The notes beneath the pieces are model-generated. The model made no database searches, was not told where the DNA came from, and saw only the letters and a list, made by a program, of their open reading frames with translations. The translations under genes were made by a program, and so were the position numbers. This document shows positions 23,361-44,365 of a stretch of DNA of 64,000 nucleotides, one piece after another (the stretch's first letter is position 1; every line of letters begins with the position of its first letter). Where the stretch lies: assembly GCA_050273025.1 (NCBI GenBank), contig CP158635.1:3100001-3164000 (forward strand), read 5' to 3'. Source of the stretch: Cenococcum geophilum (taxonomy: Eukaryota).

Positions 23361-24095
23361 TCAAGGGAACCTCCGGTTCTTGTAACAGGGTTTTTGTCCA
23401 TGAATGTGGTAAACACATGTGTTATCTTTATAGGGAGCTACCTTAACACGAATGGACTTCATAAGTGCCTGGGAGAGATCAAAGAGGAAATCTTCGGTGT
23501 AGTAGTTCCTTTTGGCCTCATCCATCCATTCTGCATCGTTGACATAAACAAACCAGTCTACCCATAGACGCCTTGCTGAGTCGCCACCAACAGTGTTCTC
23601 GTAAATTTTGCGAGTCTTGTGGATAGGATAGGATTTCTCATTGAGTACCTTTTGTATTAGCGCGTCGATCGCAGCGTCTTTGTAGTCGCCGTCCTGAATT
23701 TTATCCCCAAATATGTACGCAGATGTGAGACGCTCCCACTCAACCTCCATCTCAACGTCCTCTTCTGTAAAGAACACTCCAGTATACAGCCAATGAATAT
23801 ACGTTAAGACAACGTGCGGATCGTCTTCTGGTAATGGAATAACGCGGTCCTGAGCTTCTTTCCATTCTCGCTTAGTGGCATTCGCAAAGAATTGTGCGGA
23901 TGCGCAGAGAACGTCTTGATGGATGCAAAAATTCGCAGGATTCTCTGCTCCGACAGAAAGTGTTATTATATTAACCCCAAGCCTTGTTCTCGGATTAGTG
24001 CAGGTGTTTTATATATAACTTAAAGTAACTTACTTAGGAGCCTCTGCGGACGGCTTCCGTTGAGGTATATCTTTAAAAGACGGAGCTAGAGGTAT
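23361..24095 (-). CDS. Fungal BTB/POZ-domain protein; start codon missing or unresolved
   Basis: ITLSVG..FCIHQDVLCASAQFF..EWKEAQDRVIPLPEDDP..YIHWLYTG and YIFGDKIQD..YKDAAIDAL. Intron about 23983-24033; the apparent exon 1 has ATA where ATG is expected. Confidence 0.75.
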
Positions 24096-25197
24096 TGTGA
24101 TACTTATTCATGTATTGTTGATACGGGGGTCTTAAGTTGTCCCTTTATTGAGTGAATGTTCAAGCGAGGATGTTGAGAGTGTGCGGGACAGATTGTCGAT
24201 TCGCGGGGTTTATTAGGTGGGAAAGATTTAGGATGCGAAAATCTTGGCGTCATGTTCACGTGCAGCCGGCGGTCAAGGGTGACGACTGTGTAGCTATTCT
24301 GCAACTTGCTGTAAGCGTTTCCGCATATTCTTGTTTATATTCGTTGTTATATACAGTACGGCTTACGGGAGCTAGCAGGAGGGACGGTCGACGCGCACTG
24401 GCCATACTTTATGAGCCGCTACTATACCCTCGTGATAATGACAGACTGAGAAAGTGCTCGCTATCTACACCGGCCGGCCTAATAACTAATATATAGTACT
24501 CCTTAACACCCAATCTATCTCTATCCTCTATCTTATCCTTATCTTTGCTAGACTTCTTCCTAGCGATAATATATCGTTCCTTAAAAAGATCCTCGTCCTC
24601 CTTAATATTATACTATATCCATCCTCTTTTCGTTTTACTAAAATCTAAGATAATATAATATTTCCTATCTAATTCCATTATACAATCCTAAAACTCCCCT
24701 ACGTTAGTAATTAGTATAAGTTTACGCCCCTTATTAAACTAGAGGTTATTAATCCAATTAACTATACTAAAAGAGATGTCTATAAACTAAATGCCTCTAT
24801 TATATGCTATCTATAACTATAATAATATATTTTAGGTAGGGTACTTAATCCGCTCTATCTTATTATTAGACTTCTACTATAAGAGATTTCTGTAAAAGTA
24901 CTGCTTAAAGATACTATATTTACTTTAGCATTTTAAAGCGCGTACAATACGGGCCTCTAACTTAGATATTGCACTAACTCTATTAGTCTTCTCTGTAAGA
25001 TTACGCTTTAAGTAGTCCTTAATAAAACTAAATAAATTCTATAGTATGCTAGTAGCCTAACTTAAGGAACCGGTTTAAGAAGTTTAGATTAAGTATAAAG
25101 AACTTCCTTTAAAATAAGCTATAGAGCAAAATATCTAAGTTAGGAAGATATTGGTCTATTAAATATTGCTTAAGCTTTTCCCTTTTTAGTTTAGTAC

Positions 25198-25424
25198 TGT
25201 TAGCGACTCAGTCAATCGAGATATAAGTACGGCAAAAGGGTCGCGCAAGCCTGTATGATTGGATTGTCTATAAACGAGAATCTAAAGCTAAAGAAAGGAA
25301 AGGAGAAGAAGGGGAGCGCCGCTCGAAGCTATATACGATCTTCGCGTCACGTGACCGCAATATGCGGCAATCTATGGCAACTTGCCGGTGCGTAGTTCTG
25401 CTAAGTTCTACCAGTGCCGTAACA
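25198..25424 (-). repeat. 3' LTR of element A
   Basis: Direct repeat of 39853-40079; the differences seen are C/T and G/A transitions. Confidence 0.95.
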
Positions 25425-26103
25425 TTACCCCCCCCCTCTAAAAAAGCCTACCCTTAGGCTTTGCCGCTAAAAGTCTTAGTAAGAGAATCTAACCAATTAG
25501 ATAACTTTAACCGCCGGTTAAAGTTCCTAGATATTTTAACACCTTATATAACTAAGAAATTTCTAGGGCGTTTTTATCTTTATGTTCTTCTGGTAGCTTA
25601 TTATCTTTATTATACTAGCATTCTATTCACTTATCTAGGTACTTTAGCAGTCTGGGTTTATTAGGGTAACGGCTATAAAACTCCTAAAGCTTATAGGGGC
25701 TACCTATAAAGTTCTATATAGGGTACTAAGTAGGGTCTAGGTTATATCCTTTCCAACTAATATAATACTTTAACGTTCCCTTTATAAGTTTATAGGCTAG
25801 TATTTCTTTAATTTCCTATTTATTATCGTTGTTAACTTAAATTAGTAGGGAAGGTTTATTCTTTTATCCGGGTAATAGGTTATTTATAGCTTTCTATAGC
25901 TTATCCGGTAAAAAGATAGGGTAGACTTTAATTAAGTTTAGGAGCTTAACCTTATATAAGTTGCCTACTTTATTAAAAATCTTATATAGTCCTACTATCT
26001 TATAATCTAGCTTATGGCTAGGCCGTTTTATCTTCTAGTTCTTTATTATAACCTAAACTATATTATCTATAGTAAAATTAAGCTCGCGCCTATACTTATT
26101 TAC

Positions 26104-26318
26104 TGTAAGGGATATTATTGCGGACACCTTAAGTTGCCCTTAGGATAACCCCCGGACGCCCCTCGGATGGTCGCCGGTCACATACCAGAGGCACGTACCC
26201 GTAATATATAGTCTCCATGATCCCAAAGGCCTTACCTCCTTAAGGATTCGTCTCTCTTACTAATCTATCCTGTTCTAATTATGTCCTTATAGCCCCCTAT
26301 CTACAAGATCCCCTTATA
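26104..26318 (+). repeat. 5' LTR of element B
   Basis: Direct repeat of 34785-34999; begins TGTAAGGG, and the end has decayed from CCCTTACA to CCCTTATA. Confidence 0.95.
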
Positions 26319-29300
26319 TTTAAATCCTTCCTATTCTTTTTTAGAAGGGTAGTCGGCTTTAAGGACCAGATTATTTGTTTATATCATTTATTTACAACTA
26401 CTATCCTCCCTTAAAATCTCGCGACGACCTAAACAGAAACTCTATGGATACCTTATAGAAAGCTGTCGCGTAAAGGCAGGAAGGTCCCTCTAATAGCAAA
26501 AGATTGCGATAATATAACCCTTTAGGTAAGATGGTTGAATGAGCCCTAATACCTAAATACTCTAGGAGCTTAAAGACTCTTATACACCTACGGTTACCGC
26601 TGAGGAAAATGTAGATACCCTCTATAACGGTCGCAACGCTGCTAGAAAGTAACTAAAACCCCTCTAGCCCCACCTAGGCCAATTAGAAGATTAAGCGCTA
26701 GAGGTAACTCTAAGATCTTCCCCTAAGCTAAAAATACTAGAGGAATATACTAACGCGTTTAACTAGGGAACCAACCGGAACCCTCCTGGAAGACCACCGG
26801 CCTATAATTGGCATAGTAGTGGTATATAGACTGCTTATAAGCCAAGCGGGCCTACCCCTTTAGGTAATCTAAGCTAATTACTAACTTAGGACCCGAGCCT
26901 TATTGGGAAGCCTATACTAGCTACTAGTACTAATACTACCTCTATAATAAGAGCCTCCCCAGGCCTAAGTTTGGAAGGTTAAGAGCCCTATACCAATCTC
27001 CTTTAAGACGGATATCGGGAAGCTATTATAAGGCTCTTAGAAGCTATACGGGAGGAAGCTACTAATAAATATATTAGAACCCTTTAAGGGCAAATTTAGA
27101 TCTAATAGGGTCTAATTTAAGCTAGATAAATTCTTTTATAACCTAGTTAAGGCTAAGGGCTTCCTAGGAGCTATCTAGTACCTACCTAAAGAGGTATAAA
27201 AGACTTAGAGAGTTATCTACGCTATAAACGGAAAAAGGATATAGACTAACTGGCTAAGGCCTCCGGTAGTTTAAAACTCCGCCATAGACCCAACGCCCAA
27301 TAGTTGGACGATTGGGTTTGTAAGGTAGACAACTTCTTTAAGATGCTAATAATACGAGATAATACTAAAGAGCGTATACGCTGGATTATTAGTAAGATTA
27401 AAGACTAATTACTAAACTAGATTGCACTTAATTAGCTTATATGGCCACAGCTGCAAACCTTTTTAAAGAAATGGACTTAAGATCTGTATATTGTATAATA
27501 TAATAATGCAGAGCTATTCTAGAATAGGATATAGCTAGACCGCCACGACTTCTGCCAGTTTATAAACTTTATAGAAACTCGTGCTTAATAGATAGATTTA
27601 GAGCCCTTTAAAAACAAGGACGGTAGCATTTATAAAAAGGAGAAGATCGGGTTTATCTAGGCTAAAATTAAGCTAGTAATTTATGATGAAATAAAGCGCG
27701 TAGGAGCCCTATTACGGATTACTATATATGCGGATTTTAAACGAGTAGTTCTAAATGCTGAAGACGCGGTAAGGAACTAGACCTCTTTTAGTAGGAAGCT
27801 AAGGGGTTACCAAAAGCGCGGGCACTTTAGTAGTAATATAGGGTAGACCTAACCTTTAAAAAAGCCGTTCTTAAAGAGAACTTTGGAAGGGTTAAAGTCA
27901 GAAACCTTAAATAATAGGAAAGACTCCTAGGGCTAACCTGATACCCGTCCGGCACCTTTATAAAAACACTCTAAGAAGTTAAGAGAAAACTCTAGAGGTA
28001 GATCTTATTAGAAAAATAAGTAGGGTGATAACCGTACTAATAATTTAAAAAAAAAAAAGCCCTAGTTGCGGACCTTTCCTAGCTATAACTAGGGCAAGAT
28101 ACGGAAGGAGAGACTCTCTGTATTGCTATTAAGCTAGAAATAATACTCCCTATAGATGAGGTATAATAGTTTTAAGCACTATACGATAGTGGCGCCGAAA
28201 TTAATCTTATATAATATGATTTAGTAAAAGAGCATAAACTTATCCTATTGTAAAGGTGGCGGAAACCTATTACAGGCTTCCTAAATAAGTATTGGATTAA
28301 GCTATATAGTGCCTATAAGCTTATAGTATTAGTGGCTGATATATATAACCGTACTAAGGCGGTCGGCCCGTAACCCTTTTAGGCGGCTAACTTTATAGGT
28401 TATAACTTTATCCTTAAATACCCTTAGCTTGTGGAAGTAAATCTTAAGATACGCTTTAAGATAGGAGCCTTTAAATAGTAGAATAATAAAGATTTAAAAG
28501 GGCGTATATTACTAATAAGCTTAAAGGACATCCTAGAGAATATAGCCCTAGGTAAAATAGTATACGCTCTATACCTAAAGGAGTATCGGATTTAACCCCT
28601 ATTTAATAGTAAGATGGGTATAGAGCTTAGTATAGATGATAACCCCTCTATAATGGAGACCCTATAGGGAACTACTAAATAGGTCGCGGAGATATTATAA
28701 GGAGGCGGCGATCTTAAGGATTTTATAAGATACTTTAACCGCTATGGGTTACTCTGGCTTAAGTAATATACGGAAAGTATACTATAGCACCTTAAACGCT
28801 GCGTTAAGGAGTTCCCTACCCTCTATTGGCTACCGTATAAAACGGTTCGATATATAGTGGTAACTATATATAAGTAACTATTATAGCGCATAATGCTGCC
28901 TGTAAGTATCCTAAGGGAGCTCCGGGACCTACTTAATAATAACGCGAAGGATAAACGCGACCCTAATTTGTTAAATATTCTAGTAGGCCTAAGGGATTTA
29001 TTAAGGGTATTTTTGGGTAGGAGAGCTAAAGTCCTACCGTAGAACTTAAAGTATGATTATGCAATTAATCTAAAAGAAGGTAAATAACCGCCGAACCTTC
29101 CTATTTATAACCTCTTACGTAAAGAGCTTGAGATCCTATAGGAGTACCTTAATAGCTTACTAGAAAAGGGATGGATCCGGCTTAGTAAGTCGCCGTTAGG
29201 CGCGCCGATCCTCTTCGTCCTAAAACTAGATAGAACTATAAGGCTATATATAGACTATCGCGGTCTTAATAAGATTATAATTAAAAACTGTTACCTACTA

Positions 29301-32300
29301 CTACTGGTTAGTAAAATGCTAAATTAACTATTTAGGGCGAAGATCTTTATAAAGTTAGATTTATAAGACGCCTATTATAGGCTCCGTATTAAAGAAGGGG
29401 ATAAGTAGAAGACCGCTTTTAAGACCTAATACGGCCACTTTAAGTATCTAGTGATGCCTTTTAGGCTAGCTAATATACCTGCAATATTCCAATCGTATAT
29501 TTACAAAGCCTTAGGGGGACTAGTTGACCGCATATACGTTATCTATTTAGATAACATTTTAATCTACTTAAAAGACGAGAATTAATACAAGTAATACGTC
29601 CGCGAAGTACTAGAACGTTTAGATAATTAGGGCCTCTACGCTAAAGTGTTAAAGTATATCTTTAATATTAAGCAGGTCGAGTTCCTAGGTTACATTGTAA
29701 TACCTATAGATGTAGTTATAGACCTAGTACGGGTGTAGACGATCTAGGAGTGGCCGGAGCTAGAGAGCTACTAGGATATTTAAGTATTTTTAGGCTTTGC
29801 CAATTTCTATAGGCGCTTTATCTATAACTACTTAAACGTTACCTAATACCTATCTAACTATATTATAGAAGCTTCCTAAGACCTGACCTAAGAAGTAAAA
29901 AGCTTAAAGGCGGTAAGGAAGAAAACTAAAAAGGGACTAACTAAATAGTATAAGCTATAGTTATAGCCTAGAAAGGTTTAGGAGGGTTTTTAGGAACTTT
30001 GCGTAAAGTTTATAAAAGCTCTATTGCTGCGGTATTTTAACCTAGATTAGCTATTAATAATGATAACTAATGTATCGAATTTTGCCCTCGCTAGTATTCT
30101 ACTGTAACTTAATAGGCATCCGGACGCTACCTAGCTCTATTAGAGACCAGTAGCATTTTATAGTAGAAAATTCTAGGGACCTAAAGTTAGGTATTATACC
30201 CATAATAAGGAACTACTAGCTATAGTCAACTGCTTTAAACAGTGGCGATACTACCTTAAGTACGCGAGCTATACCACTTATATACTCTTAGATTACTATA
30301 ATCTACGCTACTTTATAACTATAAAGGAGCTTATACCTTAATAAGCTAGATAGGCAGAGGAGCTTACGTGATTTAATTTTAAGATTGAATATAAGCCAGG
30401 AGAAAATAACCCTGCTAATAAACCGTTATGACGGCTAGACTATACTAAAGGCTTTAAAACGGGAGAAGGAAAATAGATAATAGATATCTTACTCCCTATA
30501 TTGTAGAATAAGCTCTGGGTATAGGATGCTTAAGTACCCATAGCTCTATATACCGAGTCTTAGGCGGTATAAGCCCCATTGGTTTCTACTGATGTTCTGG
30601 CTAGTACCCGGTCCGTTACTAATAAGGGTCCAAATATACCTAGATAGGACGTCCCTAATACATTCTTAGAACCTAGTAATACACTATCTCTAATTACTAA
30701 GCTATCCCCTTAAATAAATAGTGAAGCTATAGAGTAATTGGAACTTGGAGCCCTGTAATAACTAAAGGACTTTAACCTTGTAGCGGCCTTCCTAACGTAC
30801 GCGTATTGAAGAGTTATAAGATTTATAGTACTATTTAGTCTTATACTTAGAGTAGTATGGGATAAAACAGCTTTTACCTAAAAACCATTTAAAGGGTTAA
30901 TGGATCTCATCCGTAAGGTATAACGGAGGGACGCTTCCTATGCCATTCTTAATACGGAAGCAGATTGGAAACGTGATGGAAAGGAAGCTACTAGGCGCTA
31001 CTATTGGGAACTAGACCTAATAGGCCTACTGCGTAAAGGTGGTAAGGTTTAGGTACTATAAGAAGCAAATCTACGATAGAAGATTCTTATGAAGAATTAC
31101 AATAATCCTTTAGGCGGCTACTATAGTTAAGCAAAAATAGTGGAATTACTTTAGCGCAAATACTATTAGCTAAGGCTTAATTAGGAAGTAAAGGAGTATA
31201 TTAGCTATTGCGAGAAGTGTTAAGTATATAAGATCCATAGGCATAAGCCATAGGGTCTACTTAAATTAGTTCCCCCCGCTAGTGAGCTATAGCAATATTA
31301 CGCTATAGACTTTATTACGGATCTCCCGCTATTTAAAGATAGCTAAGGATAAATATATAATTCGGTCCTTGTACTTATTAATAGGTTTTTAAAGTACGTT
31401 TAATACCTTCCTATTAATAAGATAATTAATGTATAAGAGCTCGCTAACCTAATTAAGGAGAAATGCTTTCTTAAAGTAGATTAGCCGCACTCTATTATTA
31501 CTAATAGGGGTAGCGTCTTTATAAGTTAGTACTGGTCGGATCTATACTTCTATTTAAAGATAGACTACTAGTATAGTACGGCTTTCTACCTATAAATAGA
31601 TGGGTAAATGGAACGCTAGAACTAGAAACTAGAGTCTTACTTACGGATATATTTAAATTACTAGTAAGATAACTAGTGCGAGCTACTTCCGTACGCGGAG
31701 TACGCTTATAATTTAAAGCAATATATATTGTATAAGTATGCACTAATCTAGATTACCTATAGCGTTTGACTATTTAGGTTTAATAGTATACCCAATAATT
31801 ACTAGCTAAGGCCGTATAATTAGTTATAGGATCCTACTAGGAAGTTTAAGGACATCTATTAAAGAGTATAAGGATACCTTTAAAAATAGGAGGAGTAATA
31901 GAAGTATGCGAAGCAGAGCCTATAAGATGCCTAAAAGTAGTAGAGACTTTAGTATAACTATAAGTACTAGGACAAGCATTTTGGAGTAGGTAATAAGGTT
32001 CTATTACGTTTAACAAATATTAAGACCCGTTAACTATTAAAGAAGCTTAATGTAAGATACCTAGGTCCCTTTTAAGTTAAGGAATGAATTGGTAAGCTAG
32101 CCTATTGTCTCTAGCTACCCCTATCTATAGCCTATATATATTTAGTGTTTTATGTAAACCTACTAGAGCTATGGCATAGACCACCGCCGGAAAAGAACTT
32201 CTGTCTAGGTCCAATTAAACACCCTAAAGTGGTGGGCGAGCGGTATAAGGTTAAAGCTATACTATACTATAAGTCTGTTAAGAATAAGCTTTAATTTGAA

Positions 32301-32484
32301 GTTAAATGGCTAGGCTGGCCCGCTAAGAACTCTATATAGGAACCAGAGGATTACCTTAATTATTGCGAAGATATTCTAAAAAAATATTGGGACTAAGGTC
32401 TATAATCTATAAGTCGCAGAAAGCGCTCTAATACTATAGTGTTATCGCGACCTATAAAAAAAGCTCGTAAAAAGAGTAAATAGG

Positions 32485-33734
32485 TCAAATCGGATATGGA
32501 ATAAATAGGCTCCGGAAACTATAAGGATAAGGCTACAGCCTAAGGCAGGACGGGTTTTTAGCCTTTTTACGTATATAGTATAGAGTTAATAGGGCATTTT
32601 GCTAGAATTGTATTCCTATTTATTAATCTATACTAAAAACATTATTCCTAGGGCTTCTAAGCCCTTTCTGAAAGCCTTATAAGGCCTTCCTAAGTACCTA
32701 ATTAAGGTCCTTAATTGCTACTATATATAAGAACGAATCCTAAAAGTCTAAACCACAAATGCCTAATTTAAAAAGCTACTACGCCTTATTATTAGGAGTA
32801 GGATTAGTATCCATTGGGCCACTAAGTGATGGCTAACGAGAATGGGATTTAGATGCCTTAGTAGGCGTACAAGTAGGTATAAAAATAGGGGCAGGATGAT
32901 GAGGTGTAGCTAGAGCAGAGACTCTTAAACGCTTAATACTAATATTAGGTCCAAACTAATACTAATGAAGCTCTTGCGGCGTAAGCTTATAGTTAATAAA
33001 GATACGCTTAAGCCTAGAATGAATAGAGACGTTAGCTGGCTGGTATAGTCTAGAACCACCAAGACCTTACTACGGTAACTGTTAGTTACCTATCCGGTAG
33101 GTATCCGAAGGGTAACCTACCTAATAACGTATTATATTATGCTCTTTTGAAACTTAACGCGTATATGCGAACTCCTTCCTATAGTAAACAGCAACCTTCT
33201 TCTTATTACTCCTATCCTTTACCCTATCCTTAGTATACTAACCTTGCTCTTGCATTAGGCGTTACTAGCTAGCTTGCTAGGAATTATAGGTAGTGTAGAT
33301 AGCCGTAGTATAGTTTTGAATTCGGCTAAGTTGTTTAGCATTTACGCTAAAATAAGAGAGAGCCTAGGCGATATAGTAGTTAAGGATATTAAAGGAACAT
33401 CACTACTTAGGCCTAGGCTATTAAAGCTTAAAGTTAGTAATAGAAATCTATTAAGAATAGAAAAGCTCACCTTAATATAACTGCTGCTCTTGGTATATAT
33501 GCATTAATTATAAAGACTAAAGGTATTGGATTTAATGTAGTACGTCTTATTATAAGCCTCCAGAATCCTATTATTAGATTTCTAGTCTTTTAAAGACGTA
33601 TAGGTAAAATTATTTAGGTAAGACTAGCACTAGTTATAAGTTAGCGGAGGTTAGGGTTCTATATATAAAGGTAGGGCTAGGATACGCTATAAAATCTACT
33701 TAGAAGAGCAGTTAGTAGGAGAACGAAGAGGTAT
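32485..33734 (-). pseudogene. Three-exon antisense cargo gene inside element B (about 384 aa, unknown function, RIP-mutated)
   Basis: Phase-0 introns 33427-33470 (GTGAGC..CTAAC..AAG) and 33070-33120 (GTAGGT..CTAAC..TAG). Exons of 264, 306 and 585 nt keep one frame; internal stops are explicable as transitions from CAA, CAG, CGA or TGG. Confidence 0.65.
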
Positions 33735-34784
33735 ATTAAATTATTAATGGAAAAAAAGAAAATCTTAATAATATATTGAAGATACGTCCAAAATTGGATA
33801 AAGGTTAATAATGGGAAAGTAAGGTGTTAAGGAAAAGGAGCTGCTTAATAAGTAAAGGTGTCCTTATACTTTACCGTCTAATACCCTTCTAGTAAATAGC
33901 CGCAACCTTACTAATATAACTCCGTTATAATAGCGCTATTTAAAAGGAAGGAAACACGCGTATAAGTTATTTAACTATTACTTCCTTATAAAAACTAACT
34001 ACGTAGCTAGGGGAAGGCAATTAAGACGTTAAATTAAAGACATATATGGGTTAAATTAGACCTAAAACGATACTATAGTATTAAAGAATAACGTTATAGA
34101 CGTTCTTGATAATCGTATAATAGCTATAATTACTATTATAAAATGTCCCTATTTGCTAGGTAGTAGAGCTACGCTAAATATACGGCATAGGACTACCAGA
34201 TTTAAAACTATATACACCAAATCTTAAGAGATAAGTCTCTTTAACTAACTAATTAATACCTTAACCGTATTTAATAGCCTAAGGGTAAATGTGGGAATAA
34301 TACGTTAGTGACGTAGAGGATTATAAGAAAAGGATTATAAGAAAGAATTATAGATTATATCTTAGCAGTTAAAGACAATGGTAAGCTAAGGCTCTATATG
34401 TTAAATCCCATACCAAAAGGTTCTATAAAACTATATTGGAATATTAAATTGCCTATAATACTTATGATTAATTATAGACTAGCATAAAGGCTTAGAAGTA
34501 GAGTTGCATAAAAATCCCTATATTAGCCTAGGTAGTCACCGGTATACTTCCGGTAGACTTCTGATAGGTTTTCTAGCAATCCTCGCGTCTTTTCTCCAGT
34601 CACGTTTTTCCCTTATTAAGGTTTTTTAGGAGTTTAAAGCAGGGGTTAGATAGATAGATAATATACAGCGGCATGCTAATACCTCTTTAATATCTCTCCG
34701 AACCTCTTCTGGGACGAGCCCTTATAATCTCCCTACCGCAAGGTAATAGCGATTGGGGGCCGACCGTAAGAAGGGGGGGGGCAA

Positions 34785-34999
34785 TATAAGGGATATTATT
34801 GCGGACACCTTAGGTTGCCCTCAGGACAACCCCCAGACGCCCCTTAGATGGTCGCCGGTCACATGCCAAAGGCACGTACCCGTAGTATATAATCTCCATA
34901 ATCCCAAAGGCCTTACCTCCTCAAGGATTCGTCTCTCTTACCAATCTATCCTATTCCAATCGTGTCCTTATAGCCCCCTGTCTACAAGATCCCCTTACA
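34785..34999 (+). repeat. 3' LTR of element B
   Basis: Follows the PPT; the start has decayed from TGTAAG to TATAAG; ends CCCTTACA. Confidence 0.95.
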
Positions 35000-37900
35000 T
35001 TTACCTACTGTTCTATTAATTTCTGGGCCTTTTTTAGGTTCGTATAGGCTACTTTCTAAACTTCTTCTAAGCGCTTAGCGTACTACTAGGCTTCCTTATA
35101 AGATAGTTTTTCGCGTATAGTCTAGGGCCCTTCTAGTCTTTTCTAGTTAAAGCTTATATAGGGTAAGTAACCCATTTCTAGTTAAATAGGGGCAAATCTG
35201 GTAGAGTTATAGGGTAGGGTCGCTTAGGCGTAGTCTATTAAAGGCAATAGTTTAGCCTAGTTATTTTAGAAGTAGTTAATAAAAGGCCGGAGTCTCTAGT
35301 CTAAGTATTAATTTATAATCTCCGTTTAACTGTCTATCTAGGGGTAATATACCGTAAAAAGCTTTAGCTTAATACCTAGAATTTAGGTAAACTTATTTCA
35401 AAAGGCTAATATAAACTACGGCCTATAGTTAGATATAATAGTATTTAGTAGTCTATAAATTTAGTAGACGTAGTAAATATACAGTTAGGCTGCCTCTTTA
35501 GCATTAATATTCTTATAATAGGGAATTAAGAACGGGCGCTTACTAAAGTAGTTAACTAGGATTATAACTATATTATATCCGTTATGGTTTAGAGGTAGCT
35601 TATAAAAGTCTATAGAGACATATTACTAAAGGTAGTTAGGTATTAGGAGGGGTTTTAATAATCCTAGGGTCTTATCTTATGGGATTATAGACCTATAGCA
35701 GTCGTTGCAGTTCTGTATATAGCGGTCGATATCTATAACTATTTCGGGCCAGTAATAGCGGTCGCCAATAATCCTATAGGTCTTATTCTTTCTAGAGTAG
35801 GCCATAAAAACCTAGGTATATGCTTTAGTAATAAGCCGAGTCCGTAAGTTCTATTTTTTTACTACTACTAGCCGTTCCTAATACTTAAGTAATCCATTTT
35901 TAAGGGACTATAGGCTGGTAACGTTCTTTACCTTTTTACGGTACTTCTATAGAGAAGGGGCCATACAGTTTATCTACAGCAATTTGTTAATTAAGTTAAG
36001 TCCTAAAGGGTTAATAGGATATATCTTAGCGCCTAAGGGGTCTATACTTAGTTCTGCCTATATTTAAGGGTTAAGGTACTCTAGTCGTAGTAGCGTCTAG
36101 GTCTATAATAAGATCTTCGTAGCCGTATAGTTACCTAGGTCTTATTCGCGCCTAGTAAAAGTATCTACACGGTTTATAGCGCCTGGTCTATATATAATTA
36201 AGAAGTTAAACTAAGATAGAATATCCGCCTAGCGTACCTACTAGGCTGTAAGGGCCTTAGTTATTATAAAGTATTCTAGGGCCTTATAATCTAATACTAC
36301 TTTAATAGGTTTAGGGGTCCCCTCTAGCTGTATACGCAAGTGCTAAAAGCTAAAGATAATAGCTAGTATTTCTTTATTATAGATGTGGTAGTTTAGTTTA
36401 GTATCTATTATAGTCTTTAAATAGTATATAATAGGGTGCCATTCTCCATCCGGTTGCTTTTAGGAAAAAATACCGGCTATTACGCCGTTTAAGGCATTAG
36501 TTTCTAGCATTAAGGGCCGTTTTAGGTTAAAGTAGGTAAGTAGGGGGGCCGATACTAGCCATTTTTTAAGCTTATTAAAGGCCTGTATATATATAGCGTT
36601 AAAGTAAAAGGGCTAGTCTTTTCTAGTAAGGTGGTTAAGAGGCCGGGTAATCCTGCTATAGTTCTTAATAAAGCGTTAGTAGAAGTTATAGAAACCTAAA
36701 AACGATTATACCCCCTTTACGGTCTATAGGGGCGTCCACTAGTTAATTACGGTCGTTTTCTCTAGGTCGGCCTTAATTCCATTTATGCTAATAATAAAAC
36801 CTAGGTACTTTATACGCTTAACACTAAATTCTAACTTCTTAATATTAGCCTAAAGGCTAGCTTCGCGGAGCCGTTATAAGACTTTATAGACATGCTCCTT
36901 ATATTCCAGTTTGTTCTTTAAATAGATTATAATATTATCTAGATAGGCCGTATAGAAGTTGTTAAGGTAGTTAAAGAGTATATCGTTTATATACCGCTGG
37001 TACATAGCTAGTCCGTTAGTTAGTCTAAAAGGAAGTACCTTATATTTATACGTCCTATAACGGGTCCGGAATATAATAAAATTCTTAAACTTAGGGTTTA
37101 TTCTAATTTAGTAAAAGGCCTAGCGGATATTAAGCTTTATAAAAACCTTAGCTCTACTTATTTAGGTAAGAGTCTTATTAAGTAAGGGCAGTAGGTAGCG
37201 GTCCTTGCGGGTTATATTATTTAGCTTATAGTAGTTAATACAGAAGCGCAGTCCTCTATTTAGCTTTTTAATAAAGAGAATAGGTAAGTTAAAAGGGGCT
37301 TAGCTAGGCTTAATAAAGCCCTTATTTAGGTTATTAATAAGGTACTACTTTATAGCCTATAATTCGGCAATAGACTATAGGTAGAGAGGGCTAAAGCTAA
37401 GGGTGCTTCCCTTATCTTGCTTAATCTCAATCTTATAGTTATATAGTTAATAAGGTAAAAGCATATTAGACACTGCCTTAGAGAATATATCCTTAAATTT
37501 CCGGTGTTAATTAGGCAGTTTTTACTCTATTAGTTCTTTATCTATAAGCCCGCTTTCTTATCTACTAAGCTTACTTTCCTTTTCTTTAATTATTTAGTTA
37601 ATTTTGTATAGGCTAGTTATAAAGGTAACGGTATTAGGCTAAACTAGGTTCTAGTAGAATCCTATAGCGCTAATATAGTAGACATTAACTAGTGGGAGGT
37701 CCGTAGGTTTCTTTAGCGTCTATTAAGCCGTGGTTTACGGTATAGGGTTTATAGTCTTCCTTAGCTTATATTCCATTTTCCGTAAATTATCCTTCCTATT
37801 TATTAGTTTAGTATAGTGTCTAATATCCCTAGCTTTCCTTTATAGCTTTATAGGGTTCTTTATAGGGAACTTAGCTAGGTTACTACTAACTTCCTAGGTC

Positions 37901-39852
37901 TTTAGTACGGGTAGCGTAATATAAGTAGTCTAGGGGTAGTGTAGTATATAGATCCGTTACGGGTTAAGCTATACGTCCTTCTTAAAGGCCTAGTCTTTAC
38001 GTATAGCATCGGCCTAGTAAATGGTATTAATCTAAGGCTGTATAAGGTTTTCTATTATAATACTAATTTCTTTTATAAAGGAAGGGGTTAGGGGTAGAGT
38101 TTTGGGCTAGATAAGCCGTCTGCTCTATACTTTAAGCTATAAGCCTAAATAGGCTAGCCATTTTCTTTTTAAGATTATATTATAGCTTCCTAAGTCTATA
38201 ATAAGAAAGGGGATATTATACTACCTTCGTCTATTAACGCGGAGGTGGATCCGCAAGATAATTATAATAGGTAGCCCTATCTGTCCGTTATAACCGCGAA
38301 TAGGGATTAGTTTAGGCAGTTCTTTAAGGGGTATATTTAAAAAGTTAGCCAGTTTTATAGCGCACTTTGTGTTAATTAAAGTAAAGATATTTACTTCTAA
38401 GTTAGCTAAAGTAGAGGTTAAAACTTAATATCTATTATAAAATAAAGTATAAGGGATAATGTAGCTTCTTTTACTAACTAGCTAACCTAGATTAATATAT
38501 AATATATCGATCCCTTTTAACCCTAGAGAGGAGTCTTCCTCTAGGGTTCCTCTTTTTCTGGCTCTATATTATCCTCCTAAATTAATAAAACCTTGTTTAT
38601 TTTTACCTTTATTAGGTAGTTCCTTATAGGATAGCCTATTTAACTATATAAGAAGTAAGCTCCTTAATCGCTAAGGGCCTATATATTAGGGTCACTATAT
38701 ATAGGCCGAGTGTACACTAGGCCTATAGTAGGGGTAGCTATATAGCTAGCTGCCGGGTTAGCTATAGGAGTTGCCGATTATACTAGGGCACTATAGGCCG
38801 TACTCGCAGTTCTTATAGCCTAGTTTATAAGGTTTTTAGTTTTTAGCCGGTTAACATATACCTTAATTTAACGGAGGCCTTAGTTAATAGCTAGGCAATA
38901 GTCTATAAGTTTCTTTAACGTCTATACTATAGTATAAGCTAGTAATATAGCCTACTATAGGTCTAGGGTAAGCTTATTAAAGAGGTCTAGTAGTAGGTCT
39001 TCCTAGGAGATCTAGGCCTATCTAGCTAGGTATAAAAAGCGGGTTTAGAAGGCTAAAAAGGTCTCCGTTATTTTTATGTTTAGGCTTTTATAGCTAAGGC
39101 AAGCGTTTTATACTTTAAAAGGGTCTTTATAAATAAAAGATAAGTATTTAATTATTTCTTCTTTAAAGATAAAGGGGTCTATTAAGTCTTTAGTATATCG
39201 CGGGCGTAAATGCGTCTAGGTGTCTTCGCTAGTACAGCTAAAGACATAGGCCATTTTAGCTTAGGCATTAGGGAAGTAGTCTATATTAACTTTAAGCTTA
39301 TCCTATAATTAAAGCTTCTAATTATTAAATATAGGGTCGGTTCCATCTGTAAGTAGTAGGGGGTCCACAACCTTTATTAACCGCTTTAGTGCTATATAGG
39401 CCTTAGTAGATCCACTAAGGCGCTAGGATAGGGCCTAAAGGACTATAGTAAGTCTTTAGTTATCTAATAATAACTTATTATTAGATATAGGGGTATCTCT
39501 AGCTTTAAGTAGCTCTCGTAATTATTTAATTTTGGTATTAGCAGCCGCAAGCTCCGCCTAGGGGGTTAAAACGTTAATTATTTCTTCGTCTAAAGTATTT
39601 AAGGGTCCTACAGCTGCTTTACCTACTGCTGTAGTTTGTGGTATGGTAGTAGGGGTATTAGGTAATTCTAGGTAATTTCTTTAGGGGTTCTAGTCTATGC
39701 GTATCTTATGGGTCCTTTCCTTAGGATTCTATTCTTTTCTTTTAGGTCCTGTCCTTATAGTCCTAGTAATATCCTTAGGGTCCTATTCTATATTCTTATA
39801 GATATATTTAAGTTCCTTCTTAGGAAGAAAGAGTAGAGTAAGCTTTAGATAA

Positions 39853-40079
39853 TGTTAGCGACTTAGTTAATTAAGACATAAGTACAGCAAAAGGGTCGCG
39901 CAAGCCTGTACGATTGGATTATCTATAAACGAGAATCTAAAGCTAAAGAAAGGAAAGGAGAAGAAGGGGAGCGCCGCTCGAAGCTATATACGATCTTCGC
40001 GTCACGTGACCGCAATATGCGGCAATCTGTGGCAACTTGCCGGTGCGTAGTTCTGCCAAGTTCTGCCAGTGCCGTAACA
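39853..40079 (-). repeat. 5' LTR of element A
   Basis: Direct repeat of 25198-25424 with TG..CA ends. Confidence 0.95.
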
Positions 40080-40090
40080 AGTACGGTTTT

Positions 40091-40276
40091 TGTGACGGCG
40101 CTGGGGCACCGCCCCTGCAACGTCTACATGCAGCCTAGTCAGGGGCTCGCTTAGAGACTTGGCTCGTGTATATAGACCTGTCCTTTCCTCGACCTCCTTC
40201 TGCTCCTTAGCTTAGTATCTTCGTAATATAGCATTCTACAAGCTTCGGTTCAGAGGCATTTGTACGAGCCGTAACA
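40091..40276. mobile_element. Solo LTR of a third retrotransposon family, 186 bp
   Basis: TGTGACGG...CCGTAACA termini flanked by identical GTTTT (40086-40090, 40277-40281); internal TATATA; no partner LTR in the window. Confidence 0.85.
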
Positions 40277-40424
40277 GTTTTTATAGCAAACCCCTTTACC
40301 ACATTCTTAGTACATCTAATTATTACTAAAATAGATAGTTTGTCGTAGTAAAACCTTTTCTTATATTACCTATGCTTATATGTTAAGCCGAGCCTTCTCT
40401 ATATTGTTATTAAAATTATCTATA

Positions 40425-40850
40425 ACGTATTCCACCACCGAGCCGGCAGAACCACCGAGCCGGCAGATCCATTTCCCCACTAAAAATCGTAAAAATCACA
40501 ATATAATATCTTAACAACCACTTAATAATAAATTCTAATAATTTAGATTTAGACTTTTATATACACTCTGCAGCTTCTATTAAAGTTGCATAGTATATAG
40601 GTTAGTAGTTTTTAAGATATAGTAATTTGGCCATATTTTGGCCCCCAAATTTTAATATCTTAAAAACTACTAACCTATATACTATGCAACTTTAATAGAA
40701 GCTGCAGAGTGTATATAAAAGTCTAAATCTAAATTATTAGAATTTATTATTAAGTGGTTGTTAAGATATTATATTGTGATTTTTACGATTTTTGGTGGGG
40801 AAATGGATCTGCCGGCTCGGTGGTTCTGCCGGCTCGGTGGTGGAATACGT
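40425..40850. mobile_element. Palindromic pogo/Tc1-mariner-type MITE, 426 bp
   Basis: 196-bp inverted arms (40425-40620 / 40655-40850) with one mismatch seen; ACGT termini; TA TSD on both sides; duplicated subterminal CCACCGAGCCGGCAGA. Confidence 0.92.
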
Positions 40851-41929
40851 TACCGGTATAGATATAGAATCGCCTACCTAAGGCATCTTAAATAAGGGTA
40901 TATTTAGTGCTTATATTCCGCTTAAGAAATCCCACTTTTAAATTAACAGCTAAAGTTATAGTAATTATACAGTAAGCTAAAGAGAAGACCTTTTCTATAC
41001 GCCTAAATTCGCGTTTCTAATATTTCTATTATCCTTATATTAGATTATATATACAGTCAATCGAGTAGCGCTTCCAATACGAACACTATAAAATATCGCG
41101 ATAGAGCCTTGATTATATAAAACTATTTATTAATATCGTAGATAATGCTGCGTGATGCCTTTTATTAAGAAAATGCCTGCATTTGAGCATTTGAGGCATT
41201 GGTTTTGATGTTCAAAACCGTAAAGAGCCCATAAGCTACGTTAGGGAAATAGTAGGGTAATGTTTTCCTAAGAATGGGAAGACGGCGAGTTCAAATGGGA
41301 TTTGAGATTTATAGTGACAAACATAGCTATTTGCATGCAGATTTAGTGATATGGTAATACGCTAAGATTTTAGTCTAAAGGATATATAATGTGCGGAGAT
41401 TCGGAGAAACGACATAACTTTAAGTACACTCTGACACTTTCAGACGAAATTTGAGAGTGGTGGGAGTGTCTGTCGTTGAACAGCTTAAACCCGCTTATTT
41501 GGCTTTTGAGAGATAATTCGGACCTTGGTAGATAAGAGCGCTCGCGGATAGACAGGTAGGAAAGTATCCGCGTTCAAACTATGACTTGTATAATGGAAAA
41601 TGCATGCTAGAAGGACACGAGACACCTAGCTTCTTGATGACAAGTACATGATGATATGACCCATAAGGTTACCGCTTCTCATCCATTTTTGTATGTGCAA
41701 ATGCGAACTCATCTGGAAGTCCTCTGTAAAACTGGACGAGTAACTCTCCTCTCATAAAGCCTCGCACGCCTCGTAACATCATCCAGACCCACACTTACCT
41801 GTTAAAACGCCTCTACAATGCACCCACACGATCCAAAAACTACAGAAGCATCCACACTGATTTCCGACCCAATACGCGCATTCAAACCCATTCCTCTCCA
41901 AGAAAGACAGAATCATACCGAGTCTCACT

Positions 41930-44365
41930 CTACGCCACTCCCCCAATAGCCAAAACCCCACCTCTAGGCACTCTCGGTCCTACAAATCCTCTCCTCTGCC
42001 TGCCCGTCCTGCCTCTACCTAGCCAATTGTACTTCAGCTCTTTCGTCAGCCTCTCCATCTTCGCTTGCGCCTCATCTCCACTCTGCACGCTCGCCAGTAC
42101 GCTGACGCACTGAAGCATGCGTCCGACGGTCTCCGTGACCTTCGCCGAGTCCATAGGCTGAGGCGGGGGAGGCGGCGCGGGGGATTGCAGAGAGTGCGCG
42201 GAAAAGGAGCCTGCGGACGTATTCGAAGTAGCGCGGGAGCGCGAGGACGTTCCGAAAGAAGTAGAGGAGGGGGTGGAGTCAAGCAGGGTAGAGCTTTGGG
42301 AGTTGTAGCTGCTCATCGGGCCCGCGCCGGTGCCGTCTGATATGGATGTAGCAGTACTGGGGCGCACTGAGGAAGAGTCAGGGATCGGATTCGGGCTGTC
42401 CACGCCCGCGTTGAGGTTTTCTAGCGAGAGGCGCGAGAAGATGGCCATGAGCGTGTCGTTGCGGGGGAGGATAGCTATGTCGCGGAATGTGAGGAGAGTG
42501 ATGCGGCGAACGTCGAGGTCCTCACCGAGTGTCGGGATGTTTTTGTTTGAAGCTGACATGTCGCTGTCGGGGAGTGCGGCGCCCCAGAATTCAGCAGCTG
42601 TGGGCGCTGTCATGAGAGAACCACGGCCTTTGAATTCAAGGTCTAGTGGCAAAAACACTGCTTGAAGGAACGGGAGAATGGTGGTAAAGACCACAAGCCA
42701 CATTTCGACCAGATGGGGGATGAGACGGTCATCCGGGACATGGCGTAGTGTTTGATCCAGCGAGGAGAAGCCGGTTTCAAGGAGTTCACTAAGATCTTCT
42801 ATTAGAATTGTTGGCGCGCGCTTCTGAATGCATATTCTAATGTGTACGGAGACGAGCGCATTGAAGTCTTCGATGGGCGGGCGAGGGTCTTCTCCTTCAA
42901 AGATGTGTAATAATCGTGCCTTCAAGAGCGGCCAGGCATCGTCAGGCGTAAGTCCTGGAATTCCAAAGGAGGCTCCTAGTCCAGATAGGTCATTTGGATA
43001 TGATAGTGGTGCGCCTGGAGATGGACCTAACGTTACACCAGGAGAAGCTCCAAGACTGCCCACCCCTGGCCACTCGGAGCGCTCCTGGCTGAAAGACTGG
43101 TTTCGTTCCCTAAAAGGGGGCTCTAGAGAGTCAACAAGATACGGTGTAAACGAAGCTGCTTTCTCCTCTTTCTTCTTCTGTCTCAATGCGCGACCTCCAT
43201 GCCTCAAATCCAGCCCACTCATTGATGCCGCGAATGTGCTTGAATGGCCAGGTGATGACGGCGCCGCAAACGAGTACAGCGGCTGCGGAGCATTCGGATC
43301 CGTTGGTCTCGAGTTACTCATCGCTGAAGACAACGGTAAATGATGGTCATCCTTATCCTTCAGCCTGTTCTTCTGTCTCGATAGAAAATGGTGTTTATGC
43401 TTCTCCTTCTCCTTCTCCGGCTGAAACATTGTCGCCCTCTCGGAAGGCACCAGCGTTGATGTTGATGCGTTCGCCGAAGAGTAAAGAGACGAAGCACTCG
43501 ACATGCTTGGATCAACCAGACTTGTGGTCGACTGGTTCATCAACCTATTCAGAGCGCCCGTGCTATGCATGCTTATCTTATTTGGCGATGGCAGCGCTGG
43601 GTGCTTCTTGTCAAAATCTCTATCCTTGGAGATGCCGATGCTCTTCGGTTTCGAAAATAGTTTCATCTTCGACTTCTCCTTGACCGGTTTCTGCTGTAGC
43701 TCTGGCGGCGCTGGTGAACCGTGATCGAGCGGCAGACCTGGTGAATGCTTTGGACTCCTGGGAAATGCCACATTTGCTGCTGTCGTCGCCGCCATCTTGT
43801 GTCCTCCTAAAATCCCGTTTTGGTATGTCATACCGTTCGTTGCGAAAGTTACTGTGGTGGGCACTGCAGGCGGTGACGATCCAGGCGGTCGTCGTCCAGG
43901 CGGGGTTCCATTATTACTCCCTGGCTCTGGTATTGTGGTTGAGCGCTTCCGCATGTGGTGCGGATTCTGGACATGCATTGCTGCTTGAGCGGCAATCTGC
44001 GACGCTGTAAGGTGGTTCGACATTGCGGGCGCATTGGAGGGCAGGGTAGGCTCAAAATAGCCTTGTGATCGCTGGCGCGGTCGGTGGCCGAAGTGCGAGG
44101 TAGGGGTGGCGTGCTCGACGGTGGGAGAGTGGTTTCGCAGGGGCAGGTCGTGGGCGACCCCGCGGGGAGCTGCGGTGGGTCGAGAGAAGTTCTGTCCAGC
44201 AGCGGTATCAACAAGTGCGAGCACAGGCGGCTTGCCTTTTCGTGGCAGCAAAGGCGATCGTCGCTGCACAGAGAGGGTGGTGATTTGCGAGGAGTCAGAG
44301 TCAGAGTCGTCGCTGTCTCTGCTCTGGCGGTAGGTGGGTGTTACGGGGGGAGGTGAGGATGTCAT
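41930..44365 (-). CDS. HbrB-domain protein (Bit61/PRR5-like TORC2-associated subunit)
   Basis: 811-aa single-exon ORF; low-complexity N-terminus, then DDAWPLLKARLLHIFEGED..IEDFNALV, LDVRRITLLTFRD and RMLQCVSVLASVQSGD..LKYNWLGRGRTGRQRRGFVG. Confidence 0.85.
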   Translation of the reverse strand: MTSSPPPVTPTYRQSRDSDDSDSDSSQITTLSVQRRSPLLPRKGKPPVLALVDTAAGQNFSRPTAAPRGVAHDLPLRNHSPTVEHATPTSHFGHRPRQRSQGYFEPTLPSNAPAMSNHLTASQIAAQAAMHVQNPHHMRKRSTTIPEPGSNNGTPPGRRPPGSSPPAVPTTVTFATNGMTYQNGILGGHKMAATTAANVAFPRSPKHSPGLPLDHGSPAPPELQQKPVKEKSKMKLFSKPKSIGISKDRDFDKKHPALPSPNKISMHSTGALNRLMNQSTTSLVDPSMSSASSLYSSANASTSTLVPSERATMFQPEKEKEKHKHHFLSRQKNRLKDKDDHHLPLSSAMSNSRPTDPNAPQPLYSFAAPSSPGHSSTFAASMSGLDLRHGGRALRQKKKEEKAASFTPYLVDSLEPPFRERNQSFSQERSEWPGVGSLGASPGVTLGPSPGAPLSYPNDLSGLGASFGIPGLTPDDAWPLLKARLLHIFEGEDPRPPIEDFNALVSVHIRICIQKRAPTILIEDLSELLETGFSSLDQTLRHVPDDRLIPHLVEMWLVVFTTILPFLQAVFLPLDLEFKGRGSLMTAPTAAEFWGAALPDSDMSASNKNIPTLGEDLDVRRITLLTFRDIAILPRNDTLMAIFSRLSLENLNAGVDSPNPIPDSSSVRPSTATSISDGTGAGPMSSYNSQSSTLLDSTPSSTSFGTSSRSRATSNTSAGSFSAHSLQSPAPPPPPQPMDSAKVTETVGRMLQCVSVLASVQSGDEAQAKMERLTKELKYNWLGRGRTGRQRRGFVGPRVPRGGVLAIGGVA

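Follow-up and report, generated by a model that had tools for sequence, protein, structure and literature searches.

Some long terminal repeat (LTR) retrotransposons of plants, and the fungal Boty elements, carry extra genes in antisense orientation, none of which has an assigned function. In the Boty-like elements of Botrytis and Sclerotinia, brtn is described as an extra antisense gene located between pol and the 3′ LTR (PMC7264820, PMC8365987, PMC4227169), and a Monilinia transcript is reported to be similar to both a truncated Pol and BRTN (PMC5987419). Similarly, an antisense open reading frame (ORF) of plant elements, aORF-3R, is located between pol and the 3′ LTR of Grande1, RIRE2, Retand and PvRetro13; it is described as present in most copies of a family and as conserved like other element proteins, and a role in retrotransposition is assumed on that account (PMC7264820). 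Here we describe a candidate gene of this kind in element B, a degraded chromovirus located in a window of 64,000 nt of the fungus Cenococcum geophilum (assembly GCA_050273025.1, contig CP158635.1, positions 3,100,001 to 3,164,000 of the forward strand); the window is the whole stretch of DNA that was analysed, and all coordinates refer to it. Among retroviruses, HBZ of human T-cell leukaemia virus type 1 and ASP of human immunodeficiency virus type 1 are proteins encoded opposite gag-pol near the 3′ LTR, HBZ being spliced and regulating the provirus.

The gene of element B resembles brtn in belonging to a fungal chromovirus, in its antisense orientation, in its position between pol and the 3′ LTR and in having no assigned function, the two being compared by layout and not by sequence. 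It shares with brtn the arrangement of an antisense ORF between pol and the 3′ LTR that is present in most family copies. In contrast to brtn, the evidence presented here is evolutionary, drawn from selection and from copies, and not transcript-based. The plant aORF-3R genes occupy the same position in the same orientation but belong to non-chromovirus lineages, whereas the element B gene is short and carries two fungal-type introns of 51–53 nt; a sequence relation between them is not expected. The likeness to HBZ and ASP is an analogy of layout only, without homology and in a different host kingdom. The layout itself is thus already known from Boty and brtn, and the protein family, judged from the searches described below, is an orphan.

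A probable antisense gene between pol and the polypurine tract

Element B carries 2,284 nt (32484-34767) between the pol stop and the polypurine tract (PPT), in agreement with the roughly 2.3 kb of extra DNA noticed in an earlier, sequence-only reading of the window. This segment is very probably a copy, killed by repeat-induced point mutation (RIP), of a real third gene of the chromovirus family. As predicted from the DNA, the gene is placed between pol and the PPT, is read in the direction opposite to gag-pol and is composed of three exons and two short spliceosomal introns. Its parts are as follows.

33734-33471, minus strand: exon 1, 88 codons, with the start codon and a Cys-rich region (nine Cys and one His; CWSC and CDRC)
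33470-33418, minus strand: intron 1, 53 nt, GTGAGC..T(A/G)CT(A/G)AC..TAG among copies, with a TACTAAC branch site in the window copy
33417-33121, minus strand: exon 2, 99 codons, open after reversal of RIP save for TAG 33123-33121
33120-33070, minus strand: intron 2, 51 nt, GTAGGT..TAACTAAC..GTAG, branch site CTAAC
33069-32779, minus strand: exon 3, 96 codons plus TAG 32781-32779, a conserved core followed by a Pro-rich acidic tail
32778-32484, minus strand: probable 3′ untranslated region (UTR), the first 27 codons of which (32778-32698) may code if TAG 32781 derives from CAG
34767-33735, minus strand: non-coding spacer of about 1 kb from the gene ATG to the PPT, presumed to hold the 5′ UTR and an antisense promoter, the promoter role being conjectural

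Introns of filamentous fungi display a GT donor with G at +5, a CTRAY branch site 10–20 nt before YAG and a length of about 50–90 nt. Both predicted introns fit this consensus and behave as non-coding sequence among copies; the sequence-only reading had recognised them as canonical and placed them at the same positions. A short-intron pattern of our own design, which is loose (GTRNGY, [AT]CTRAC, YAG; 45–100 nt), was scanned over both strands of 24000-42000 (36 kb) and returned two matches only, which are introns 1 and 2.

Coding potential is apparent from the composition of the segment. Three-base periodicity, measured as a base-by-phase chi-square, is strong throughout 32500-33700, reaches 42.7 (p 1.3e-7) at 32800-33399 and equals that of pol, while 33735-34780 displays no three-base periodicity (chi-square 2.7, p 0.85). 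The phase of the signal shifts between about 33390 and 33480, which is the position of intron 1. Exon 3 gives the strongest periodicity, and the signal fades below about 32715-32760. All three exons are T-rich and A-poor at third positions of the minus frame, with an A share of 0.18–0.23. In the raw segment stops are abundant in every frame, and a Pfam search of the six frames, with stops read as X, returned only a spurious TNFR_16_TM match at E 0.03. The window copy carries 28 in-frame stops within 33734-32782 and has lost its ATG, which reads ATA.

Copies of the segment and reversal of RIP

Copies were sought in metagenome contigs with a RIP-tolerant degenerate pattern taken from 32803-32858. 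This search recovered 119 further loci from a single metagenome, and flanks were available for 80; 38 loci cover all of 32200-35010 with 87–91% identity to the window. Every recovered copy has suffered RIP (GC 0.33–0.39 in the full-span loci), and the segment is found in 119 of 119, none being without it. A search of viral contigs for related loci gave 28 pattern matches, none of which was confirmed. In the DNA sequencing runs X5, X8 and X18, which come from two organisms, the segment and the 3′ end of pol are covered to a comparable depth, and the differences among reads over the segment are almost all transitions.

The 119 copies were aligned to the window and RIP was reversed by reading C in a pyrimidine column if at least two copies keep C, and G likewise in a purine column. 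The same procedure was applied to pol as a control (28101-32483; 49–70 copies), where it lowered the number of in-frame stops from 114 to 13, with 12 internal stops left in 1,461 codons. These are TAA, TAG and TGA codons at which at most one of the 49–70 copies has C at the first base, and they represent either RIP hot spots or the legacy of an ancestor of the sampled copies that was already mutated in part and may have been non-autonomous or duplicated. Ordinary CpA sites keep C in about 10–25% of copies, as against at most one copy at the 12 pol stops. In the wrong and antisense frames of the de-RIPed pol 52–90 stops remain (3.6–6.2% in wrong frames).

Applied to the antisense gene, the procedure restores the start codon, since 31 of 72 copies still have G at 33732; the ATA at 33734 of the window is a RIP-hit ATG, as the sequence-only reading had suggested. 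After de-RIP, exon 1 has no stop in 88 codons and exon 3 none in 96 codons up to TAG 32781-32779. Exon 2 has one stop in 99 codons, TAG 33123-33121, which immediately precedes the GTAGGT donor and is present in 117 of 117 copies. An environmental relative, P0019, has Q at both 33156 and 33123 (...MMRYQ), continues for seven codons of intron 2 and then ends. The residual stop of exon 2 is therefore read as a RIP-hit CAG, and the junction CAG|GTAGGT holds. The outcomes that, according to the sequence-only reading, would refute the gene are not observed over 33734-32782: the splice sites are conserved, no copy is without the segment, and the residual stop is of the same all-copies TAA/TAG kind as those in pol and replaced by Q in a relative.

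The donor at 33120 is preferred for intron 2 because P0019 has CAG before it. An intron 2 with donor 33158 and acceptor 33066 was considered and rejected for its weak donor (GTTAAG).

The 3′ end of the frame is less sharply defined. TAG 32781-32779 is T-A-G in 119–120 of 120 copies, and past it the de-RIPed frame meets stops at 32700, 32679, 32622, 32604 and 32487, two of which vary by transversion. Relatives of exon 3 are environmental ORF fragments, among which P0018, P0021, P0025, P0031 and P0040 have Q at 32781 while P0023, P0024, P0026 and P0027 terminate there; beyond 32781 the fragments with Q diverge in length and frame. The disagreement between Q and stop, together with the divergent sequence beyond, places the end of the ORF at 32781 or at most at 32700, and the predicted product comprises about 283 aa, which a CAG ancestor of TAG 32781 would extend to about 310 aa. 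The end proposed in the sequence-only reading, TGA 32485-32487 at one base from the pol stop, is not retained, as the de-RIPed frame is open only to 32781 (or 32700) and meets more stops beyond; the proposed length of about 384 aa is accordingly shortened by its last 98 to 125 codons.

At the 5′ side, P0002 and P0009 have an upstream ATG that provides 77 more open codons ahead of the gene ATG (33735-33965, minus strand). This stretch is taken as 5′ UTR because periodicity is absent from it, the copies differ there by 1-nt indels and shared transversions are numerous.

Selection on the spliced frame and conservation of splice sites

RIP causes transitions only. Transversions present in at least two copies therefore record divergence that took place before or outside RIP. 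Exons 2 and 3 contain 12 shared transversions, of which 10 are synonymous third-position changes, one is a synonymous first-position change (AGG/CGG) and one replaces R by S. Thus 11 of 12 are synonymous in the gene frame where the expected share is 0.185 (binomial P 8.6e-8), and the other five frames give 0, 0, 0, 1 and 5 synonymous changes out of the same 12. By exon, 9 of 10 are synonymous in exon 2 and 2 of 2 in exon 3 (32980 and 32977); exon 1 has no shared transversion in 264 nt. The corresponding count for pol is 15 of 22. The flanking regions display no such bias: the spacer (33735-34784) has 24 shared transversions distributed 8/8/8 by codon position, 3 of the 24 being synonymous in an arbitrary frame, and the eight of 32484-32781 are spread over first, second and third positions alike (3/2/3 in the gene frame, 3/3/2 in a second count).

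Length variation follows the same anatomy. A 7-nt deletion (33427-33421), present in 27–28 of 77 copies, falls inside intron 1, past the branch site and ahead of the acceptor. No deletion position is common to two or more copies in exon 1, in most of exon 2 or in exon 3, and the stretch 33417-32782 measures 639 nt in 67 of 76 copies. The spacer (33735-34767) displays 1-nt indels among copies. The window copy is one codon (3 nt) short at 32785, in the acidic, Asn-rich C-terminal stretch, which is an in-frame length polymorphism; a 3-nt insertion at 32785 is a minority form in the sequencing runs.

The splice sites are kept among the copies. At intron 1 the donor G is conserved in 74 of 76 copies, its T in 76 of 76 and the acceptor AG in 77 of 77, while at intron 2 the donor GT is found in 117 of 117 copies, the acceptor A in 117 of 117 and its G in 110 of 117. 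Intron 2 retains in-frame stops after de-RIP. The minor form occurs in a similar number of copies, 23–30 of 77, for seven synonymous transversions (33322-33397) and for the 7-nt intron deletion.

These patterns suggest that two sub-lineages of the family diverged with the gene under selection, and the substitutions common to several copies demonstrate, for the frame as predicted, purifying selection on the spliced reading during that divergence, like that on pol. The proposal that the segment is a maintained accessory gene of the family is supported by its presence in all copies, its conserved length and its shared substitutions, which are synonymous as in pol.

The predicted protein and its relatives

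The predicted protein is composed of a Cys-rich N-terminus, a charged middle region and a Pro-rich acidic tail. The Cys spacing in the de-RIP translation and in P0006 is C-x2-C-x5-C-x16-C-x4-C-x8-C-x2-C-x7-C, and the CxxC pairs that the sequence-only reading had regarded as possible in exon 1 are recovered as CWSC and CDRC in both. P0006 is a little-mutated relative in which 83 of 88 residues (our own count) are identical to the de-RIPed exon 1, with its CxxC pairs present.

Relatives were searched with two profiles built from translations of the copies in which stops were read as X, A1 covering exon 1 and A2 extending from exon 2 to exon 3, by word-indexed searches of 5.8 billion proteins and an exhaustive HMMER search of 1.84 billion representatives. 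Both profiles return unnamed ORFs and fragments, mostly from short contigs of environmental assemblies; those related to exon 3 are P0018, P0021, P0023-P0027, P0031 and P0040. No homologue outside element copies was found in these searches. Among the 28 proteins obtained by the word-indexed searches none bears a source name, which is weak evidence against a close similarity to BRTN. The long HMMER matches P0028 and P0030 were set aside as repeated matches to the X-rich intron part of A2; P0028, the one that was examined, is a repeat protein.

A Pfam search at E up to 1 gave nothing meaningful in seven proteins, four of them exon 1 relatives, or in 41 translations of the window and loci. Two candidate families were rejected. 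The Zn2Cys6 cluster has the spacing C-x2-C-x6-C-x5-12-C-x2-C-x6-8-C, from which the Cys spacing of the predicted protein differs, and no zinc-cluster Pfam model (PF00172) is found in eight natural relatives at E up to 10 or in the above seven proteins and 41 translations at E up to 1. DUF3716 (PF12511) likewise has no Pfam match at E up to 10 in the eight relatives. Comparison with Atlas clusters provided weak leads with a best score of 0.84; the cluster at rank 8 (0.79), in which 28% of members have DUF3716, stays below the score at which the tool would rank it above a mere lead.

Judged by layout and composition, the product would be a small protein, probably metal-binding, that serves the element in trans. 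A narrower role, that of a metal-binding regulator which binds nucleic acid or chromatin, is put forward as a tentative possibility.

Alternative explanations

Chance is almost certainly not the source of the gene structure. AT-rich DNA degraded by RIP can yield intron-like motifs, and frames can seem open when RIP is reversed by eye; in the raw window 31 stops fall in the 382 codons of the sequence-only reading, and every frame of the segment is stop-rich. Chance is at odds with the periodicity (p 1e-7), with an intron pattern that has its sole two matches in 36 kb where the frame changes, with 283 codons that keep one stop after de-RIP when 3.6–6.2% of codons are stops in the wrong frames of pol, and with the synonymy of the shared transversions. 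Very improbable, too, is an ORF3 that follows pol on the sense strand (plus strand, codons from coordinate mod 3 = 1) and of which the minus exons would be a shadow. De-RIP leaves the plus frame without a stop over about 270 codons (about 32925-33745), stops are fewer in it in the raw window, and a purine/pyrimidine (R/Y) codon model prefers the plus strand by 2–16 bits per exon. The 7-nt deletion of 27–28 of 77 copies would however lie within this ORF3, it would make only 1 of the 12 shared transversions silent and would place 11 of them at first codon positions, and the change of periodicity phase at 33418-33470 is unexplained by a single plus frame. The openness of the plus frame follows from the low third-position A of the minus frame (0.18–0.23), which alone clears stops from the aligned opposite frame, and the plus ORF3 has no Pfam match.

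The unspliced ORF of 157–159 aa given by gene callers, which runs from exon 1 through intron 1 into another frame of exon 2, is improbable as the only product. It is open in the de-RIP consensus, and 13 of 16 environmental ORFs obtained with the exon 1 profile are 157–159 aa long with a common end and 48–79% identity to P0006; the search that yielded them, however, took proteins of at least 155 aa only and so favours read-through, and a search at 48–154 aa returned copies with an earlier stop, P0046 and P0045 among them. In a third of copies the unspliced frame is disrupted by the 7-nt intron indel; this frame makes none of the 12 shared transversions synonymous and does not account for the conservation of exon 3. 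This ORF may possibly be a minor, intron-retained isoform. There is similarly little probability that the segment is a transduced host-gene fragment or a nested foreign insertion, a passenger without function for the element. Its lack of a recognised retroelement domain and its introns of host type would agree with such an origin, but it has been under purifying selection equal to that on pol through the diversification of the family, it is present in all 119 copies with conserved length, and no internal repeat pair of at least 40 nt is found around it. A captured host gene, one of the origins offered in the sequence-only reading, is without support because no relative outside element copies turned up in the protein searches.

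Several observations weigh against a real, spliced third gene. No spliced protein is found among the 27 exon 1 relatives (16 from the search at 155 aa or more, 11 from that at 48–154 aa); each is an ORF read without splicing or a fragment, and the contigs are mostly short. Eight natural relatives match no Pfam family at E up to 10, a search of PDB sequences with the A1 and A2 profiles returned nothing at E up to 10, and AlphaFold2 applied to A3 with a shallow alignment gave a mean predicted local distance difference test score (pLDDT) of 36.9. No frame of the segment scores positive in a codon model for which the RIPed pol served as training set; the R/Y codon model, trained on host ORFs, slightly prefers the opposite strand, a result of little weight as the model mis-assigned the gag of element B too; composition by itself does not decide between the strands. 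The gene may end at either 32781 or 32700; within the final 40 nt of exon 2, at 33159-33137, there are deletions of 1–5 bases, each common to 2–3 copies; and an alternative intron 2 of 153 nt, in frame, with donor 33222 and acceptor 33070, could still be the one used. The RNA run X21, of which about 12/100 was read, covers the segment thinly, with at most 3.6 reads per bin and no joints. Finally, the 12 shared transversions may sit on few branches, since seven of them have similar minor counts (23–30 of 77); they count as separate mutations and not as a broad sample of lineages.

Proposed mechanism and significance

An RIP-killed third gene, which we prefer, would have worked as follows. A promoter of its own, located in the 1-kb spacer next to the PPT, would drive the antisense gene; the antisense transcript is predicted from intron orientation alone. 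The introns would outlast retrotransposition, as on the sense genomic RNA they are present as reverse complements and would not be spliceable. The protein would act in trans on the life cycle or regulation of the element itself, and RIP has killed the gene in the window copy and in all 119 recovered copies.

The element B family provides unusually clean evolutionary evidence that an element needs its antisense gene, based on divergence that is synonymous only, as in pol, on conserved exon lengths and on an indel confined to an intron. An intron-bearing antisense layout is thus recoverable even from fully RIPed relics, and for annotation the 2-kb 'spacers' of fungal Gypsy elements are not to be presumed non-coding. 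P0006 and P0019, which have few or no stops, and a defined protein offer material for experiments. It is unlikely that this gene is the founding member of an unrecognised, fast-evolving class of spliced antisense regulators on which many fungal chromoviruses, including Boty with brtn, depend; a protein of that class might govern the LTR or the antisense promoter of its element, or weaken the genome defence of the host (silencing or RIP), as a fungal counterpart of HBZ and ASP.

Element B and its genomic setting

Element B lies in an AT-rich block of RIP type at about 24–42 kb of the fungal window (GC 0.33–0.41, as against about 0.5 outside), in which comparison of repeat pairs reveals two nested LTR pairs. 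Its main features are as follows.

26104-34999, plus strand: element B, delimited by its LTR pair, target site duplication (TSD), PPT and Pfam domains
26104-26318, plus strand: 5′ LTR, direct repeat pair, 91%, boundaries read from sequence
26900-32483, plus strand: gag-pol, stop 32481-32483, chromodomain at about 32244-32393
34768-34781, plus strand: PPT, three bases ahead of the 3′ LTR, read from sequence
34785-34999, plus strand: 3′ LTR, direct repeat pair, with loose ends of reads and contigs at 34785/34787 and 34999/35003

The LTRs are 215 nt long and the element is flanked by the TSD TTTAC (26099-26103 and 35000-35004). Element B is a chromovirus (Ty3/gypsy with a chromodomain) degraded by RIP, because its long frame contains RVT_1, RT_RNaseH, Integrase_H2C2 and SH3_Tf2-1 together with a chromodomain. 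With stops masked as X, the pol frame matches the first four of these Pfam models, each above its cut-off, at 1.1e-19, 5.2e-16, 6.8e-7 and 3.3e-11, respectively. In the RIPed pol the Chromo model scores 25.0 bits (E 1.8e-5) against a cut-off of 25.1, and the chromodomain stretch is plain in the de-RIP translation.

Element B is inserted in the integrase/chromodomain end of element A, which is likewise a RIPed Ty3/gypsy element but runs on the minus strand (25195-40079), with LTRs at 25195-25424 and 39850-40079 and with RVT_1, RNaseH and integrase domains. Element A has no additional segment between pol and LTR. Nearly all placed RNA reads of X21 fall on the 3′ LTR of element B (34759-35003) and continue into dissimilar sequence; they are probably LTR-containing transcripts of other copies or of solo LTRs.

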